Shown: piece by piece, positions 16,936 through 22,455 of the stretch | Layout of the letters: every line of letters begins with the position of its first letter | Numbering within the stretch: position 1 is the stretch's first letter | Source of the DNA: Thermoplasmata archaeon | GTDB taxonomy: Archaea; Thermoplasmatota; SW-10-69-26; JACQPN01; JAJPHT01 | Assembly (NCBI GenBank): GCA_034667685.1 | Contig: JAXDQU010000111.1 | Location: 1-23,499, forward strand | Reading direction: 5' to 3' | DNA length: 23,499 nt | Translations under genes and position numbers: made by a program | Notes under the pieces: generated by a model | What the model saw: the letters and a program-made list of their open reading frames with translations, nothing else | What the model was told of the DNA's origin: nothing | Databases searched by the model: none

Positions 16936-18465
16936 ATGTTCAAGAAGGTCCTCGTGGCGAACCGCGGCGAGATCGCGGTGCGGGTGTTCCGCGCCTGCCG
17001 CGAGATGGGGATCAAGACCGTCGCGGTCTACTCCGAGGCGGACGCCGACGCGCCCCACGTCAAGATGGCCGACGAGGCCGTGCTGCTGGGCCCCGCGCCT
17101 TCGCTCCAGAGCTACCTGGTCAAGGAGAAGATCATCAAGGCCGCGCAGGACACGGGCGCCGACGCCATCCACCCGGGCTACGGCTTCCTCTCCGAGAAGA
17201 GCGACTTCGTGCGCCTCTGCGAGAAGGCCGGGATCAAGTTCATCGGCCCCACCTCGAAGGCGATGGATGCGATGGGCGACAAGGTGTCGGCCAAGCGCAA
17301 CGCGATCAAGGCCGGCGTGCCCGTGGCGCCCGCGTCCGACGGCGCGGTGCACGCGGGCGACGCGAAGAAGGTCGTCGAGAAGATCGGCCTCCCGGTCATC
17401 GTCAAGGCGGTGCACGGCGGCGGCGGCATGGGCATGCGCGTCGTGCGCAGCATGGACGAGCTCGACAAGGCCGTCCGCGACGCGAGCGCGCAGGCCGCGA
17501 GCGCCTTCGGCAGCGAAGAGGTCTTCATCGAGAAGTTCATCGAGGACCCGCACCACATCGAGTTCCAGATCCTGGGCGACGAGCACGGCCACGTGATCTA
17601 CCTGGGCGAGCGCGAGTGCAGCATCCAGCGCCGCAACCAGAAGCTCCTCGAGGAGGCGCCCTCGCCTTCCATCACGCCGGAGCAGCGCAAGGAGATCGGG
17701 GACCGCTGCGTGAAGCTCGCGAAGAGCGTCGGCTACTCGTGCGCCGGCACGATGGAGTTCCTCTACAAGGACGGCCAGTTCTACTTCATGGAGATGAACA
17801 CGCGCCTCCAGGTCGAGCACCCGGTCACGGAGCTCGTCACCGGCGTGGACCTCGTGAAGTGGCAGCTCCGCGTCGCGAGCGGCGAGAAGCTCACCATCAA
17901 GCAGGATGACGTCAAGATGCGCGGCCACGCGCTGGAGCTGCGCATCAACGCCGAGGACGCCTACAACGGCTTCGCGCCCGCGCCCGGCCTCGTCACGAAG
18001 CTCGTGCGCCCCGCGGGCCCGGGCGTGCGCGTGGACGACGGCATCGCGGAGGGCTTCACCATCCCCAGCACGTATGATAGCATGGTGATGAAGCTCATCA
18101 CGCACGCCGAGACGCGCCACGACAACCTGGAGCGGATGGACCGCGCGCTCAACGAGCTCGTCCTGGAAGGCCAGCTCAAGACCAACGTCCCCTTCCACCG
18201 GATGGTGCTCCACAACAAGGCGTTCGTCGCCGGCCAGCTCGACACGGGCTTCATCGCGAAGCAGAAGATCATGGAGGCGCTGGAGGCCGAGGCCAAGGTC
18301 GCGGCCCGCGCCCGCGCGGAGCGCGCCGCCGTGCTCGTCGCGGCCCTCACCCGCGCGCCGGGCGGGGGGATCCGCGGCGTCCACCACCGACAGACGGCGC
18401 CGAAGCCGCTCGCGGGCCCCGAGGCGGCGACCCCTGCCTGGGCGATGCGCCACAGGAGGATCTGA
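16936..18465 (+). CDS. accC: Biotin carboxylase subunit of an acyl-CoA (acetyl/propionyl/methylcrotonyl) carboxylase
   Basis: MFKKVLVANRGEIA, IHPGYGFLSE, GGGGMGMR, ERECSIQRRNQK, EMNTRLQVEHPVTE, RINAED. Confidence 0.95.
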   Translation: MFKKVLVANRGEIAVRVFRACREMGIKTVAVYSEADADAPHVKMADEAVLLGPAPSLQSYLVKEKIIKAAQDTGADAIHPGYGFLSEKSDFVRLCEKAGIKFIGPTSKAMDAMGDKVSAKRNAIKAGVPVAPASDGAVHAGDAKKVVEKIGLPVIVKAVHGGGGMGMRVVRSMDELDKAVRDASAQAASAFGSEEVFIEKFIEDPHHIEFQILGDEHGHVIYLGERECSIQRRNQKLLEEAPSPSITPEQRKEIGDRCVKLAKSVGYSCAGTMEFLYKDGQFYFMEMNTRLQVEHPVTELVTGVDLVKWQLRVASGEKLTIKQDDVKMRGHALELRINAEDAYNGFAPAPGLVTKLVRPAGPGVRVDDGIAEGFTIPSTYDSMVMKLITHAETRHDNLERMDRALNELVLEGQLKTNVPFHRMVLHNKAFVAGQLDTGFIAKQKIMEALEAEAKVAARARAERAAVLVAALTRAPGGGIRGVHHRQTAPKPLAGPEAATPAWAMRHRRI

Positions 18466-18469
18466 TATC

Positions 18470-18934
18470 ATGCGCGTCCTCATTGAAATCGAAGGCGAGG
18501 AGTACGAGTGCGTGCTCCAGCGCGAGGGCGAGGTCGTCAAGGTCGACGTCGGCGGCACGCCCTTCGAGGTCAAGCTCGGCGAGGGCGGCCAGGTCACGTT
18601 GGGCGGCAAGCGCCACGTGGTCGAGCTGCGCGAGAAGGACGCCCGCATCGACGGCCAGGACGTGCGCTTCCGCATCGCCGACCTGCGCGCGGGCGGCGCG
18701 GGCGAGAAGGGCGGCGCGCGCGGAGCCCGCATCCGCCCCCCCATGCCCGGCAAGATCGTCAACGTCGCCGTGCAGGAGGGCCAGGAGGTCGCCGCCGGCC
18801 ACGTCCTGCTCATCCTCGAAGCGATGAAGATGCAGAACGAGATCGTGGCTCCTTCTGCGGGAACGATCAAGAAGATCCACGTCAAGCCCGGACAGAACGT
18901 CGAAGGCAAGGACGTGCTCCTCGAGATCGAGTGA
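18470..18934 (+). CDS. accB: Biotin carboxyl carrier protein
   Basis: PMPGKI...LEAMKMQNEI biotinylation motif. Confidence 0.93.
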   Translation: MRVLIEIEGEEYECVLQREGEVVKVDVGGTPFEVKLGEGGQVTLGGKRHVVELREKDARIDGQDVRFRIADLRAGGAGEKGGARGARIRPPMPGKIVNVAVQEGQEVAAGHVLLILEAMKMQNEIVAPSAGTIKKIHVKPGQNVEGKDVLLEIE

Positions 18935-19021
18935 TCGGCTTATCGCCCCCGCAGCGGCGCTTCAGCGCCGCGGAGCGGGGCGTGTAGGGCGCGTTGCCGG
19001 CTGGCGCGCCAGCCGATGTCT

Positions 19022-19145
19022 GAACGAGATCGTTGCGCCCTCCGCGGGCACGATCAAGAAGATCCACGTCAAGCCCGGACAGAACGTCGAAGGGAAGGAC
19101 GTGCTCCTCGAGATCGAGTGATGGGCTTATCGCCCCCGCAGCGGC
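19022..19145 (+). repeat. 124-bp direct duplicate of the BCCP 3' end and downstream flank (18835-18958)
   Basis: 117/124 identical; retains NEIVAPSAGTIKKIHVKPGQNVEGKDVLLEIE-stop but lacks the biotinylated Lys. Confidence 0.95.
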
Positions 19146-19154
19146 CTTTTGGGA

Positions 19155-21224
19155 TCACCCCGCCACGCGCGCGTCGCCGTGGTTCGCGCCGTCGCCCACG
19201 TGCGCCGCCGCGGTCCAGCCGTGCGCGAGCGCGGCGTCGAGGGGCAGCTCGAAGCGGAGCACGCCCGCCGCGTCCGTCGTGCCCGTGACCGTCTGGGGCG
19301 GAAGGAGCGGCGCGTTCCGCTGGAACGCGATCGTCACCGTGGCGCCGGCGACGGGCGCGCCATCGAGGTAGGTCGCGACGAGCGTCCCCTTCGGGCCGTG
19401 GCCCAGCGCGGGCATGCCGGCGTCCATCGTCATCGAGACGGGGAACGCGTCGCGCACGTCGACGAAGCCGTAGCCGCCGACCGCGCCGTCGGTCGCGTAG
19501 ACCGCCTGCGTGCCCACCTGGCTCCCGACGAAGACGCCCGTGGCGTTGACGGCGCCGCCGTACACCGGGGACCACGTGATCGGGCCGGCGTCCACGTCGT
19601 TGCCGAACGCGTCGTGGCCCTGCGCGCGGAACGCGACCGGGCGCCCAAGGTTCACCGGCGAGCGCGCGGGGCTCACCGCGAGCGAGGCGATCGGGCCGGG
19701 CGTGACCGTGACGTCGCGCGCGAGGTCGTGGTACGCGCCCTGCGCGTAGACGCGCGCATGGATCGTCTGCGGCCCGGGGCGCGTGAGGTACACGCTCCAG
19801 GTGGACGGGCTCGTGGGCACGAGATTCTCGTACTGGTCGAGCGCGACGACCTCGTACGTCGCGCGCCCGCCCGCCTGGACCGTGTCGGGCCCGTCGAGGC
19901 GGAGCACGGTCGCCGCGTCGGGCACGACCTGGACGTCGAGCGATCCGGTCACGCCGTCGCGCGTGTAGGTCATGGTCGCGGGGCCCGCGAGGGTCGGCGC
20001 GGTCCACGAGACGAGGTCGTCGAACACGACGTTGCCGTAGGCGTCGCGGCCCCAGGCGCGAAGCGCGAGGTCGTGGCCGGCGGGGACGCTGGTCCCGGGC
20101 GGGGCCAGCAGCTCGATCCGCTCGAGCGGCGCGGGGACCACCGTGAAGGGGTGGCACAGGTCGCCGCTGCAGAAGCGGAGGTCGCGCGGCGCCTGCGTGA
20201 ACGTGTACGTGAAGTCGTTCGCGTACGCGACGTTGCCGTAGGCGTCGAAGTTGTCGACGTGGAAGGTGATCGGCTCGCCCGCGACGACGCTGTCGGGGCC
20301 CGTGATGGTGGTGTTTGTGACCGGGCCCGCGACGACGTGGTAGACGCTCTCCGCGTGGAGGCCGTTGCCGTCGGCCGTCACGGTGCAGTCCTGCGTCGTC
20401 GTGGGCAGCGTCCAGGACGCTCCGTCCAGCGTGCCGCAGCTCACGGCGAGCGCGTACCCCTCGAACGTCGCGAGGTTGCCCCACGCGTCGTAGCCCCACG
20501 CGCCAAGCTGGACCGTGGTCCCGACCGTGAGCCGGTCGTACCAGTCCGGCATGACGTGCACCGACGCGACGGGCCCCGGATACACGCCGAGGTGCTGCGT
20601 GTCGGTCGTCGAGGAGCCCAGCGCGTCCGTGACCGTGAGCGCGACGGCGTGCACGTCGTTGGCGTGCGTGTCGTTGATCGTGAGCGTGGGCCCGTCGCCG
20701 GCCGGCGCGCCGTCGAGCGTCCAGTGGTACGCGACGATCCCGCCGTCGTCCGTCGAGCCGCTCCCGTCCAGCGTGGTGGCGACGCCCGCGATGAGCTGCT
20801 GGTAGGCGAACGTGGCCCAGGGCGCGTAGTTGACGACGTCGAAGCGCGCGGTCTGGGAGTCGGAGATGCCGCACGCGCCCGAGACGGAGAACGTCGCGTC
20901 GTAGCTGCCCATCTCGAAATGCCGGGCGAAGTCCTGGCCGTCGACGTGGAGGCGGAAGGGCGAGCCGTCGGCGAGCGTGCCCGTGACGTCCCAGCCCCAC
21001 GCCTGGACGTTGCAGTCGGCGCCGGGCGCGTTGCCCATGAAGCGGATCTCGTCCTGCGTGTAGGACCACGTTTCGCCGGGCGCGGGCGAGTTGATCTGCG
21101 CGGTAAGCCAGGGCGCCTCGGCGATGGCGGCGGGGGGGAGAAGGGCGGCGCTGAGCACAAGGAGCGCCAGGATGGTACGGAACAGATGGAAGCCTCCAGC
21201 GCCGCGAAGCCCATGGCGCGTCAT
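19155..21224 (-). CDS. Secreted PKD/Ig-like repeat protein
   Basis: Signal peptide ([20 protein letters not shown]); PKD-like [21 protein letters not shown]; five DA[WYF]GN-type motifs; start approximate. Confidence 0.82.
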
Positions 21225-21300
21225 AAGCAGGATGGCAGAAGTTTGTCGCGCCGGTGGGCGACGGCAAACGCTGAAATGCCTCCTGTCGCCTCGCGCCGCC

Positions 21301-22455
21301 ATGCCCTCGTTCGACCTCCCCGAGGACGACCGCCTGATCCTCAAGACGGTCCGCGAGTACGGCGAGTCCACGCTGGGCCCGCGCGCGAAGGAGCGCGACG
21401 AGAAGATGATCTTCCCGCGCAAGGAGATGGACGAGATGGCGAAGCTCGGCCTCCTGGGCGCGAACATCCCCGAGGCGTACGGCGGCGCCAACCTCCCCAC
21501 GCGCACGTTCGTGCTCATCATGGAGGAGCTGGCGCGCTGGGACGCGGCGGTCGCGGTGACGTACGGCGTGCACGCCAGCGTCGCGGTCTACCCGCTGCTG
21601 GAGAAGGGCTCCGAGGCGCAGAAGGCCGAGGCGCTGCCCAAGCTCGCGGCCGGCGAGCGCATCGGGTGCTTTTCGCTATCAGAGCCAAGCGCCGGCTCCG
21701 ACCCGGGGGGCCTCCAGGCCACTGCCGTGAAGGACGGGGACGGCTACCGCATCAACGGCACGAAGGTGTGGGTCACGAACGGCCACGAGGCGGGCCACGT
21801 CATCCTCATCGCGCGCACCGACCCGGCGGCCGGCAACCGCGGCCTGAGCGCGTTCCTGCTCACCGACCCGTTCCCCAAGGGTTTCAAGCTCGGCGCCAAG
21901 GAGCACAAGATGGGCATCCGCGGCAGCGTCACGAGCACGTTCCACCTGGAGGACATGTGGGTCCCGGCCACCGCGCGCATCGGCGCGGAGGGCGACGGCT
22001 TCAAGCTCGCGATGAAGGCGCTCGACCCCTCGCGCATCGGCATCGGCGCGCAGGGCCTGGGCATCGCGCGCGCCGCCTACGAGGCGAGCCTCGCGTACGC
22101 CAACGAGCGCGAGCAGTTCGGCAGGAAGATCGGCTCGTTCCAGGCCGTGCAGTGGAAGCTCGCCGACATGGCGACGCGCATCGAGGCGGGGCGCCTGCTC
22201 ATCGCGCGCGCCGCCGAGCTGAAGGACGCGGGCCTGCCGTTCACCAAGGAGGCCGCGCAGGCGAAGTGGTTCTGCACCGAGCTTGCGCAGTGGGCCGCCA
22301 TCGAGGCCGTGCAGATCCACGGCGGCAACGGCTACACGACGGACTATCCCGTCGAGCGCTACATGCGCGACGCCAAGATCACGACGATCTACGAGGGCAC
22401 CAGCGAGATCCAGCAATTGGTGATCGCGCGGAACCTCGGGCTGCCGCCCAGCTAG
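21301..22455 (+). CDS. Acyl-CoA dehydrogenase
   Basis: [58 protein letters not shown]. Confidence 0.96.

Follow-up and report, generated by a model that had tools for sequence, protein, structure and literature searches.

Site-specific mobile elements are known to replace the 3' or the 5' end of the gene in which they reside: examples are phage 21 and e14 in icd, and SXT in prfC. In Escherichia coli icd, e14 (and likewise phage 21) supplies a replacement end, and the native end, icdC, lies orphaned behind the element. The two icd ends at e14 differ at 12 sites over 165 nt, 11 of them in third codon positions; nine codon differences are synonymous and two nonsynonymous, and the similarity of the ends stops at the stop codon. 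e14 measures ~15 kb and brings its own integrase and excisionase. CIMEs, such as the one in fda of Streptococcus thermophilus, are att-flanked, recombinase-less derivatives of integrative elements: kilobase-sized, non-autonomous deletion derivatives with one att site, situated in a gene end between direct repeats and presumed to use functions supplied in trans.

Smaller sequences and homology-driven processes offer further points of comparison. The REP, BIME, and REPIN sequences of bacteria are short, G+C-rich, hairpin-forming, multi-copy, and noncoding; they lie just 3' of genes and show genome-specific concerted evolution. Campbell-type laboratory integration and "recoded rescue" knock-ins, both man-made, produce a fixed order of parts: the gene with its incoming end, the insert, and the resident end. 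Gene integrity is preserved, and the differences between the ends are silent. In homology-facilitated illegitimate recombination, a process of naturally transformable bacteria that is usually reported with deletions or replacements, one-sided homology anchors foreign DNA and an illegitimate joint forms at nearby microhomology. We know of no reports of this process in which gene ends are systematically duplicated or a hairpin recurrently defines the end, nor of its occurrence in archaea.

Here, we analyze a stretch of 23,499 nucleotides (the window) from an archaeon, in which the 3' end of the gene for the biotin carboxyl carrier protein (BCCP) occurs twice, around a short hairpin-forming repeat that we call E. 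The window's own genome, G000, is a metagenome bin of 124 contigs that is 99% complete; G003 is a congeneric genome. Approximately 20 loci in these two related soil archaea point to an undescribed route by which tiny pieces of mobile DNA get into genes without disrupting them.

The E loci resemble icd in that a replacement end appears to be supplied and the native end orphaned behind the insert. Unlike e14, the E inserts are 63-120 nt long and without coding capacity; one arm sequence is found at ~17 targets, including 5' ends and tRNAs, no clean identical core seems to open the repeat, and the host belongs to the archaea. CIMEs share with E the non-autonomous state, the position, and the presumed dependence on functions in trans, but for E we see neither a parent element nor an integrase that would match. 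All the features listed for REP, BIME, and REPIN sequences are found in E as well, yet those sequences come without gene-end duplications, and E has neither a free GTAG beside a stem nor a RAYT transposase. The man-made insertion-duplications show the same order of parts, the same intact gene, and the same silent differences as the E loci; the portion of the literature that we searched holds no description of a natural small element using insertion-duplication. Homology-facilitated illegitimate recombination, with its one-sided anchor and nearby illegitimate joint, is a further natural parallel.

Duplicated end of the BCCP gene

The BCCP gene (18470..18934, + strand; 154 aa; Pfam Biotin_lipoyl, E = 1.3e-20) follows the biotin carboxylase gene of the same operon (16936..18465, + strand; Pfam CPSase_L_D2, Biotin_carb_N, and Biotin_carb_C; GC3 0.978). 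Its stop codon is at the identical position in the orthologues of genomes G001-G004 and G007. GC3 is 0.959 in the BCCP gene body and 0.967-0.978 in the neighboring genes.

A preliminary description of the window, made from its letters, had claimed that the 3' end of this gene is duplicated with synonymous coding differences only, and the claim is borne out. There is a single direct pair, 18835-18958 and 19022-19145, with 94% identity over 124 nt and 7 mismatches in a gapless alignment. The left, in-gene copy (18835..18958, + strand) comprises 100 nt of the BCCP 3' end, including the stop codon at 18932-18934, the letters TC, and the first 22 nt of E. The right copy is an orphan BCCP 3' end (19022..19121, + strand) with its own stop codon at 19119-19121, joined to no gene body. 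After it come TG and a second E, cut off after 22 nt (19122..19145, + strand), which gives a weak match to the E profile at 19119-19149 and has the locus-specific variant CGCAGCGGC, a variant missing from the 16 other aligned copies.

Both copies of the BCCP end translate to NEIVAPSAGTIKKIHVKPGQNVEGKDVLLEIE*. All six coding differences are synonymous and in third positions (GTG/GTT, GCT/GCG, CCT/CCC, TCT/TCC, GGA/GGC, and GGC/GGG), and the seventh mismatch is the second base past the stop codon (TGATC vs TGATG). The codon usage attributed to the two copies holds as well: codons ending in G or C make up 26/32 in the in-gene copy and 29/32 in the orphan, against a host GC3 of 0.959-0.978, and the in-gene copy has GCT, CCT, TCT, and GGA where the orphan codons end in G or C. 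Of the two, it is the in-gene copy that is atypical and richer in A/T, the orphan being host-typical; in 18 comparisons with relatives, the orphan codons match in 10 and the in-gene codons in 3.

Downstream, a 788-aa open reading frame (19155..21224, - strand; length from the longest start, ~690 aa from the likely start) sits between the orphan and an acyl-CoA dehydrogenase gene (21301..22455, + strand; Pfam Acyl-CoA_dh_N/M/1). It has a signal peptide, a weak PKD-like match (PF22352, E = 4e-4, below the cut-off), and a native-like GC3 of 0.967. The frame is missing at that position in G003, where the BCCP stop codon overlaps the dehydrogenase start and the sequence past the stop matches the start of the 21301..22455 gene.

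Sequencing support

Logan unitigs of run X1, which may be the source sample of the window assembly, match the window without differences at 18600-18892, 18906-19013, 18986-19079, and 19095-19400. The third of these runs from E into the orphan and carries the orphan-specific letters. Run X2 supports 18877-19013 and 19064-19400, and its depth is zero at 19032-19058. Mapping of reads across the junctions, proposed in the preliminary description, succeeds in part: each E junction is matched by X1 unitigs at the depth of the flanks, but no piece among the X1, X2, and X3 records (X3 being only a part) spans both copies, the longest piece being 137 nt. The contigs of the three runs contain no excised or circular form, empty-site allele, or joints; such contigs drop rare variants and were given no weight for or against excision or empty sites.

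These data bear on the most prosaic explanation: that the assembler, led by a repeated element, put alleles of the BCCP end from two strains in tandem. The source is a metagenome bin in 124 contigs, and the copies differ as strain alleles do. E has a stretch of ~29 nt in common with the copy on contig C35, where the unitigs branch (loose ends at 19015 and 18931); the lack of a record across both copies and the gap in X2 depth would also fit. However, the letters from the right end of E through ATGTCT into the orphan form one exact 94-nt unitig with a depth of 7.9, against 8.8-9.1 in the flanks, and the alternative path, which joins BCCP to the C35 flank, ruins both homologous pairings. The architecture moreover recurs at 17 of 19 E copies; a second genome, which comes from a different project, has it too, as does a separate assembly of that genome's metagenome. 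We consider it highly improbable that the duplicated BCCP end was created in assembly by the tandem placement of two strain alleles.

Element E

The 63-nt spacer between the copies is not unique to the window, as a genome search shows, but makes up most of E: a noncoding, multi-copy repeat of ~80 nt. The outcome that would have refuted the preliminary interpretation, a spacer found once and without similar loci elsewhere, did not occur, and the core of that interpretation stands. In the window, the core of E occupies 18937..19015 (+ strand; GGCTTATCGCCCC ... CAGCCG), with a BLAST-defined extent of 18935-19018. Hairpin 1 (18939..18988, + strand) consists of an outer stem that includes CTTATC/GTAGG, a purine-rich 3x3 internal loop, and the inner stem GCGGCGC-TTCA-GCGCCGC at 18954-18971. 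Hairpin 2 (18998..19015, + strand), a perfect 18-nt palindrome in the window copy that matches itself, forms the right end of E, beside the orphan. The palindromic motifs and the GTAG at 18984-18987 are thus located as first reported. Between E and the orphan lies a filler, ATGTCT (19016..19021, + strand), which bears only a loose likeness to GATGCA at 18829-18834 of the gene.

An RNAalifold consensus of 17 E copies has three compensatory pairs in hairpin 1 (A-U/G-C, 12:5; G-C/C-G, 6:11 and 12:5). In hairpin 2, a 7-bp stem is present in 17/17 copies, with one G-C/C-G compensatory pair (13:4). A single-sequence fold of E is no better than shuffles (z = -1.5), and it is covariation that supports the structure. 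The consensus also disposes of the suggestion, prompted by the GTAG, of a REP-type sequence. The GTAG is the 3' strand at the base of the long hairpin, paired with CTTATC, and in 5/17 copies it becomes GCAG together with its partner (A-U to G-C); no Y1/RAYT transposase was found. A REP or BIME identity was rejected on these grounds.

In this archaeal genus, E adjoins gene ends. A profile search of G000 found 12 full-length copies, a fragment on contig C5, and the 22-nt remnant at 19124-19145; G003 has seven full-length copies. The copies on contigs C88, C41, C68, and C105 are identical to each other, and at one orthologous site the family predates the split of G000 and G003. Scans of GTDB species and metagenomes returned only G003 and G003-matching contigs, the other 5 and 23 pattern matches failing the E profile. 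IMG/VR scans found no family member, their single pattern match not being one. Rfam 15 has no family for E; the best scores in 18400-19400 (23 bits against a cut-off of 35, for Rubella_3, and 16 against 36) are at chance level. The distribution of integrases does not follow that of E: seven are present in G002, which has no E.

Layout of the E loci

Further duplicated gene ends, for which the preliminary description had suggested a search, are present: 17 of 19 full-length E copies in the two genomes share one layout, made up of an intact gene or tRNA end, a stretch x of 2-36 unique nt, E, 0-8 nt, and the orphan end. G003 contributes 7/7, the seventh read from metagenome contig L045, and G000 10/12, of which eight were recognized at the nucleotide level and two, C31 and C35, at the codon level. 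The duplications measure 18-124 nt. The targets include tRNA-Leu, tRNA-Thr, tRNA-Ser, and tRNA-His, the 3' ends of protein genes, and 5' ends (C58, C122, and C75).

The similarity of the two copies ends at the stop codon or the tRNA end, and x is unrelated to the sequence past the orphan, even at locus L014, where the pair is identical (32/32). No conserved motif lies beside either end of E. The window pair starts with 12 identical nt; at least six other pairs have mismatches within the first 2-6 nt of the repeat, which tends to favor exchange based on homology over strand exchange within a fixed junction core. At C81, the flanks of the insertion are adjacent in G001, G002, and G004, which indicates a local event; synteny in these three relatives led us to reject, for C81, the idea of E as the edge of large rearrangements or imported islands. 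At L011, where the right flank maps to a different G000 contig, E may be such an edge.

The layout is not confined to E. Other hairpin spacers show it at C72 (161 nt; 7 synonymous and 0 nonsynonymous differences), C84 (146 nt; 20:1), C13 (4:1), and C79 (3:0), and it occurs with unique, non-repeated hairpin spacers as well. Conversely, E is a simple insertion with no duplication at C105 and C110, so E must have another way of moving or persisting. Two candidates from the genome-wide scan, C34:9762-10180 and C40:1821-2198, are tandem paralogous genes and were set aside.

Differences between paired gene ends

Eleven coding pairs, with 191 codons, contain 35 synonymous and 9 nonsynonymous codon differences and five switches from one stop codon to another. 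Their nucleotide differences fall 9/7/39 on the three codon positions (p = 1.4e-8). An in-frame stop is kept in 7/8 orphan 3' ends, with five stop-to-stop changes vs one stop-to-sense change. The C88 pair is identical at 51/63 positions, vs 50-51/63 for a congeneric orthologue, and 20/21 residues are unchanged. These substitutions mean that both copies were once working gene ends, in separate lineages. Such a history rejects drift after target-site duplication, as do the unrelated x, the switching between stop codons, and the silent-only pattern of change; the preliminary description had doubted, and rightly so, that neutral drift in a nonfunctional duplicate would leave only silent differences at BCCP. 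Divergence forms a continuum from identical pairs (L014, 32/32; L045, 18/18; C84, 38/38) through pairs with 1-3 differences to ~20%.

The preliminary description had spoken of a "recoded" end, which is too strong: the differences resemble the ordinary divergence of functional alleles, as in orthologues and in e14/icd. Orthologues within the genus show 838 synonymous vs 616 nonsynonymous differences. Serine TCN/AGY switches account for 60/838 of the synonymous ones, so the serine switches in the pairs, which have about the same share, are part of ordinary allele divergence, and "deliberate" recoding was rejected. One-step error-prone copying was rejected too: G/C transversions are frequent, and serine codons switch between TCG and AGC and arginine codons between CGN and AGR, all of which has the look of long-term substitution. 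A retro-copy of a mature tRNA does not apply, as the in-gene tRNA copies have a genomic trailer and no CCA.

GC3 is 0.831 in the in-gene copies, 0.880 in the orphans, 0.971 in the adjacent gene bodies, and 0.924 in gene ends genome-wide. Where the two copies differ silently, A or T is in the in-gene copy 17 times vs 4 (p = 0.007). By composition, the in-gene copy is a small piece distinct from the rest of its own gene. A counter-case is C88, whose unusual states (GAA, TAT, and AGC) are in the orphan while its in-gene copy is genus-typical; at C81, ancestral and derived states are mixed in each copy.

We also considered that E transposes with long, variable, initially perfect target duplications, and that the copies at a polymorphic insertion are later overwritten from the alleles of insertion-free strains. 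The continuum of divergence suits this idea, the four identical E copies in G000 suggest recent spread, and the family is older than the split of the two genomes at one site. A target duplication should, however, abut E on both sides, whereas 2-36 unrelated nt intervene and the copies cease to be similar at the stop codon or tRNA end. An unselected orphan should hold most of the differences, ~70% of them nonsynonymous, which the observed 35:9 and the stop-codon counts contradict. At C88, E is identical to other copies, yet the two gene ends there have diverged by 19%. Searches of the genome for Y1 and TnpB genes were negative, and we know of no transposase family that makes duplications of 18-124 nt. 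Transposition of this kind is improbable.

Proposed mode of entry

The reading that we favor, at a probability of roughly 45%, is that a small unit consisting of a foreign gene end and E recombined into the resident gene by insertion-duplication. At BCCP, three parts would have come in together: the 3' end of the gene as carried by a different lineage within the population (~6% silent divergence), 2 nt, and E. The right boundary of the unit would be at the foot of the terminal hairpin of E. One recombination with the resident gene, within the common homology, would suffice. The route may have been Campbell-type integration of a small circle or capture of a hairpin-ended strand that is homologous only at the gene end. 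The incoming end would now close the BCCP gene, and the resident end would have been displaced behind E as the orphan, 6 nt past it. Such an insertion would be tolerated because the gene is never broken.

We infer that the in-gene copy is the incoming one and that entry was by a single crossover. The unit probably contains no dedicated enzyme; catalysis could come from the host recombination system or from an integrase or nuclease acting in trans. Directly after the orphan comes the start (22 nt) of the same E variant, which means that E was there before the duplication event. The event at BCCP therefore took place between two E-bearing alleles and does not mark the first arrival of E. The identity of the E copies at C88, C41, C68, and C105, next to a gene-end pair at C88 that is 19% diverged, speaks against a unit with a long independent history; it fits a long-lived unit only if E is homogenized or the copies arrived together.

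Insertion-duplication by a small unit can be extended, tentatively and with considerable doubt, to a new class of archaeal miniature mobile element, addressed by a copy of the target gene's own end. Its members would be noncoding units of ~110-190 bp (gene end, a few nucleotides, and a hairpin module) that shuttle between lineages and enter by a single homology-guided exchange, always leaving a working gene and an orphan end. They would be active at 3' ends, 5' ends, and tRNAs, with several hairpin families per genome.

An alternative makes E passive. Imported chromosomal DNA would recombine on one side only, as in homology-facilitated illegitimate recombination, and E would be a hairpin that protects the DNA end: a non-homologous 3' tail would be trimmed to the E hairpin and joined by microhomology to the displaced resident strand, and a joint tens of nucleotides upstream would create the duplication. 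The joint is in every case at the base of a G+C-rich hairpin; the filler is 0-8 nt long, short similarities to the target, such as CCG or CCGG, are seen, and the duplications are short (18-166 nt), as expected inside a D-loop. Unrelated and unique hairpin spacers share the layout, and allele-like divergence requires imported DNA anyway. On the other hand, were the imported tract to reach into the gene, the adjacent gene body should be A/T-enriched like the in-gene copy, which the GC3 values (0.971 vs 0.831) deny, and near-identical donor and recipient predict an x homologous to the sequence past the orphan, which is not so at L014. The process is, to our knowledge, documented in bacteria only, and in the portion of the literature searched it was not found together with duplication. 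We consider this alternative unlikely.

If entry by units of gene end and hairpin is correct, a gene-less module of 80 nt can colonize ~20 essential archaeal loci (tRNAs, TBP, an aconitase-family gene, and BCCP), and it does so harmlessly because every E copy comes with a gene end of its own. A trick of large prophages would thereby be extended to the smallest scale and to 5' ends, and the engineered insertion-duplications and "recoded rescue" knock-ins would have a natural counterpart. The loci would be a visible footprint of frequent DNA exchange among diverged soil archaea: gene-end exchange would be recorded between lineages 0-20% apart in an uncultured soil genus, making cross-species recombination directly countable. 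Other genomes could be searched for the signature of such events: gene ends that have diverged silently, with a short hairpin spacer between them. For annotation, orphan ends resemble pseudogenes or misassemblies and are neither.

Recombinases and rejected element classes

The genome has five tyrosine recombinase genes, none of them on the 13 E-bearing contigs, and the 12 integrase loci of G002-G004 contain no match to the E profile at E<=0.1. These findings bear on a further explanation: that a gene-end-replacing virus or plasmid with a tyrosine recombinase lost its cargo between two E-like repeats, leaving a solo E in the manner of a solo LTR. The silent-difference signature equals that of e14/icd, recombinase genes are present, site-specific elements replace both kinds of gene end, and repeat-by-repeat deletion would give E its uniform left and right boundaries. 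But no locus in G000 or G003 has two E copies around cargo, and the absence of E from the integrase loci and IMG/VR, and of tyrosine recombinases from E-bearing contigs, goes against such a parent. One arm sequence would have to serve ~17 targets, a fixed overlap region sits uneasily with the mismatches that many repeats show within their first 2-6 nt, and unique spacers have the same layout. We regard a relic of this kind as distinctly unlikely.

Searches for transposases gave 0 matches to Y1 (RAYT/TnpA; PF01797) in the 99% complete genome, against a control that was found in 6/14 reference genomes; transposase genes often go unassembled in bins. TnpB (PF07282) likewise gave 0 matches in the window's own genome. 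With neither TnpA nor TnpB genes found, and no conserved motif at the ends of E, an IS200/IS605-derived PATE was rejected. So was a MITE: the ends of E (GGCTTATCGCC on the left, CGCCAGCCG on the right) lack complementarity to each other, and the inverted repeats are internal hairpins. MITE-type target duplication is rejected as well, the repeats here being 18-124 nt long, imperfect, and 2-36 unrelated nt away from the left end of E.

Finally, a diversity-generating retroelement was rejected because the downstream letters at the seven differing sites are T, G, C, C, C, G, and G, with no adenine among them. The tRNA and 5'-end targets of E are also unlike those of a diversity-generating retroelement.

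Duplicated gene end at the BCCP locus

The window holds a single long direct repeat, 18835-18958 and 19022-19145 (124 nt, 7 mismatches). The left, in-gene copy consists of the final 100 nt of a biotin carboxyl carrier protein (BCCP) gene (18470-18934; 154 aa, Biotin_lipoyl domain) and 24 nt beyond its stop codon; the right, orphan copy encodes the identical 32 residues and stop codon but is joined to no gene body. All 6 coding differences are silent and in third positions, as the preliminary description had claimed, and the seventh lies two bases past the stop codon. The palindromes and GTAG that it reported are likewise present where it placed them. Its view that the in-gene copy is atypical in codons also holds: G/C-ending codons number 26 of 32 there and 29 of 32 in the orphan, against a fraction of 0.96-0.98 in surrounding genes. 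In 18 codon comparisons with the relatives G003 (a congener), G004, or G001, the orphan agrees 10 times and the in-gene copy 3 times.

Between the two gene ends lies E, a repeat of about 80 nt with two hairpins. In G003, the BCCP stop codon overlaps the start of an acyl-CoA dehydrogenase gene (TGATG), and E is absent there. In the window's own genome, G000, BCCP is followed by TC, E, ATGTCT, the orphan end, and 22 nt from a second E; a 2.1-kb stretch then leads to the acyl-CoA dehydrogenase gene. The orphan retains the TGATG ending. The 2.1-kb stretch that parts the two genes (19146-21300) begins at the cut-down second E and bears a convergent gene of native codon usage for a secreted protein with weak PKD-like resemblance. 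Variant CGCAGCGGC is common to the window's E and the truncated E and is found in no other copy, so the two are sisters, and E therefore already stood behind BCCP before the duplication. Two alleles, each bearing E and 6 silent sites apart, were joined in the event, and the distal E was shortened afterwards, possibly upon arrival of the 2.1-kb stretch. Read backwards through E, the orphan's frame is open to 18828 (18828-19121); it spans 97 codons, differs from the BCCP frame, and is probably open by chance in sequence of 71% G+C.

That the tandem is an assembly artefact is highly improbable. Unitigs from run X1, which may be the window's source sample, match the window exactly from gene into left copy (18600-18892), from left copy into E (18906-19013), from E into right copy, carrying that copy's letters (18986-19079), and from right copy into downstream DNA (19095-19400), at depths of 6-9. 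In run X2, which comes from another study, two of these four pieces are supported and depth is zero at 19032-19058. Each junction is thus covered by X1 unitigs, but nothing from X1 or X2 covers both copies. Unitigs branch within the window's E because the copy on contig C35 has about 29 nt in common with it; an alternative path through that stretch would disrupt both the BCCP and the C35 pairings. The strongest argument for a real locus is that the layout recurs in an independent genome, as it also does in a separate assembly of that genome's metagenome.

Family and structure of element E

When 18800-19200 was searched against G000 (3.48 Mb, 124 contigs, 99% complete), eleven further places matched, by 18935-19018 only; the spacer, for which the preliminary description had proposed a genome search, is multi-copy. 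A ten-copy profile locates 12 full-length E loci in G000 as well as a C5 fragment and the 22 nt behind the window's right copy. The core spans 18937-19015 in the window (GGCTTATCGCCCC...CAGCCG, 77-84 nt). E is a modular repeat, since the copies on C88, C105, and C110 are directly preceded on the left by a 36-nt G+C-rich module (GGGAGCGCCCGGCGCGCAGCGCCG.GGCGCG.GTC). The C110 copy has a 48-nt internal insert. A weak match to the module lies at G003:C37:58373-58426.

In the RNAalifold consensus of 17 copies, hairpin 1 (18939-18988) is long: a 3x3 purine-rich internal loop separates its outer stem from an inner stem that ends in a TTCA-type loop. Hairpin 2 (18998-19015) is short and terminal. Compensatory changes affect four base pairs. 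GTAG, read earlier as the lead of a REP, makes up the 3' side of the outer stem and becomes GCAG where its partner TTATC becomes TTGTC; being paired and covarying, it is not a REP-type free tetranucleotide. A single-sequence fold of E is no better than those of shuffled sequences (z=-1.5), and an Rfam search returned no matching family.

Among 40 relatives searched, only G003 carries the family, in 7 full-length copies; none was found in three other congeneric genomes (86-88% complete) or in 36 more distant ones. When GTDB species genomes, JGI metagenomes, and IMG/VR were scanned by pattern, only the G003 record and contigs matching it were recovered, with no viral contig bearing E in IMG/VR. 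Both species have a simple E insertion at the orthologous C110 site, which makes the family older than the G000/G003 split. Four G000 copies are identical, among them that on C88, whose flanking ends are 19% apart.

A recurring layout at genes and tRNAs

With G000 copies placed in like orientation, direct flank duplication is evident at nucleotide level in 8 of 12: C111 (the window's locus, 124 nt), C88 (63), C58 (65), C75 (55), C81 (53-55), C41 (27), C68 (27), and C122 (23-31). At codon level, C31 has MTGSIG* in both copies and C35 has KVF-RLRR in both; the C105 and C110 copies are simple insertions. In G003, all seven copies show duplication (18-82 nt), the seventh being read from metagenome contig L045, beside tRNA-His like G003:C6:17934-18008.

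Duplication-bearing loci follow a constant order: intact gene or tRNA end, a stretch x of 2-36 unique nt, E, 0-8 nt of filler, orphan, and other DNA. The two copies are alike as far as the stop codon or, for tRNAs, a few bases beyond the end, and x is unrelated to the sequence after the orphan, even for a pair identical at 32 of 32 positions. Targets include tRNA-Leu(TAG) and tRNA-Thr(CGT) in G000, tRNA-Ser(GCT) and tRNA-His in G003, and protein 3' ends such as those of BCCP and, in G003, a TBP gene. Three clear 5'-end targets (C58, C122, C75) lie on the opposite strand, where the intact gene retains its own start codon beside E's left end, and at C122 also its ribosome-binding site GGAGGTGA. 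The flanks of C81 are syntenic in three relatives, so that event was a small local insertion.

Several loci add detail. In both species E sits immediately 3' of tRNA-His, in opposite orientation (G000:C105:20627-20780; L045/G003:C6:17773-18008): the G000 copy abuts the tRNA and has no duplication, and in G003 there are a 26-nt spacer and an 18-nt duplication. This is a target hit twice independently. At G000:C8:82749-83822, two TBP genes stand in tandem; the orthologous G003 region has a TBP gene, then E, then a 35-nt TBP-end orphan, which could be a remnant of the second paralogue and not a duplication. At G003:C12:109447-112239, two inverted copies (L017, L013), right ends inward, enclose 2.6 kb of ordinary genes (SRPBCC-like, redoxin-like) with no counterpart between the orthologous flanking genes in G000 (C10:2231-4318).

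Silent divergence and the atypical copy

In the 191 codons of 11 coding pairs, silent codon differences number 35 and replacements 9, and stop-to-stop switches occur 5 times; the first, second, and third codon positions hold 9, 7, and 39 nucleotide differences (p=1.4e-8). Several replacements fall in the junction codon. The stop codon is in place in 7 of 8 orphan 3' ends, and five of these differ from the in-gene stop. Of the nine single-base changes that a stop codon can undergo, only one or two yield another stop. A pair identical at birth predicts changes mostly in the unselected orphan, about 70% of them protein-altering, which is not observed; the excess of silent differences and the stops mostly kept bear out the preliminary claim that a dead, drifting duplicate is incompatible with the data. 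We consider very unlikely the reading that long target duplications were overwritten later through allele exchange.

The C88 pair is as distant as G000 is from G003 (51 versus 50-51 identical of 63), with agreement at 20 of 21 residues. It includes a Ser TCG/AGC switch, as does C31. Congeneric orthologues (4213 codons) differ by 838 silent and 616 replacement changes; 60 of the 838 are Ser switches, so those in the pairs are not exotic. Judged by these patterns, the pairs look like two alleles, each a real gene end in its own lineage until recently; the lineages range from near-identical up to species-level divergence.

At silent third positions, in-gene A/T faces orphan G/C 17 times and the reverse occurs 4 times (p=0.007). 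GC3 is 0.831 in in-gene copies, 0.880 in orphans, and 0.971 in the adjacent 100 codons of gene body. Across 1409 long ORFs of G000, GC3 is 0.97 in gene bodies and 0.924 in the last 25 codons, and it declines steadily across the last 15 to reach 0.86 in the last five; orphans are therefore about normal and in-gene copies depleted. The in-gene copy thus behaves as a short piece with a history separate from the gene it completes. Exceptions are C88, with unusual states in the orphan, and C81, with one derived feature in each copy.

Mechanism and comparison with known systems

Such loci require DNA from another lineage, the product being gene plus one allele's end, x, E, and the other allele's end. 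We favor, at a probability of roughly 45%, a natural insertion-duplication by a small unit of gene end, x, and E. By the simplest route, a single reciprocal exchange would occur between the resident gene and this unit, whose right boundary would be the foot of E's terminal hairpin. Such an exchange would explain why the right junction is constant with few filler bases and the duplication start variable, why x is unrelated and the gene intact, why both 3' and 5' ends are used, and why only events including a gene's end survive. Many duplications have mismatches in their first 2-6 nt, which favors homology-based exchange over strand exchange in a fixed core. One-sided recombination of an imported hairpin-ended fragment is a close rival, if a rather unlikely one.

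Gene-end replacement by integrating elements is known for large prophages and islands, including phage 21, SXT in prfC, and CIMEs; hairpin repeats 3' of genes are known as REP/BIME. In Escherichia coli, prophage e14 provides the final 165 nt of icd; these and the orphan icdC differ at 12 sites, 11 of them third-position (9 silent and 2 replacement codon differences), a mostly silent divergence like that at E loci. E could accordingly be what is left of full-size integrative elements reduced to solo repeats, a second close rival that we regard as unlikely. Five tyrosine recombinase genes occur in G000, none on an E-bearing contig, and no Y1 transposase or TnpB nuclease domain was found there. 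The E profile matched none of 12 integrase loci of three relatives, and integrase content does not track E, which the relative G002, with 7 integrases, lacks.

A literature search at the level of abstracts, among them those on the pTN3 integrase (PMC5495485) and tycheposons (10.1101/2020.12.28.424599), gave no description of the combination of gene-less 110-190-bp units in several hairpin families in archaea, with about twenty targets per genome, tRNAs and 5' ends included. The host is an archaeon, since G000 has TBP genes and lacks sigma-70 region 2, with controls as expected. The record of its congener G003 is titled 'Proteobacteria bacterium', a public label that looks wrong.

Other hairpin spacers in the same genome

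Self-comparison of G000 for direct repeats 30-400 nt apart recovered the E loci and further hairpin-spacer cases, so other duplicated gene ends, which the preliminary description had suggested looking for, do exist. A second small hairpin family, CACGGCCGRATC...GCTCGCTTCGCTCGC...CGGCCTRTCG (G000:C72:14778-15187, G000:C84:15556-15951, G000:C76:7073-7315), lies between silently diverged gene ends at C72 and C84. The C72 duplication (161 nt) has 7 silent and 0 replacement differences; that at C84 (146 nt, the C-terminus of an aconitase/LeuC-like protein) has 20 silent, 1 replacement, and two Ser switches, and its in-gene copy is richer in A/T, 10 versus 4. The family's terminal hairpin occurs alone at five other sites.

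Two further self-comparison matches were plain tandem paralogues. At five G000 loci, imperfect gene-end duplications surround a spacer of 61-111 nt that is single-copy and resembles a hairpin or terminator. These are C13:12659-12887 (4 silent to 1 replacement, with a hairpin like E's hairpin 1 in design), C79:66417-66587 (3 silent to 0 replacement), C54:61733-62040 (a 5' end), C84:8765-8903 (38 of 38 identical), and C79:17573-17716, a 42-nt duplication that has a tyrosine recombinase gene (C79:16563-17093) about 480 nt away.
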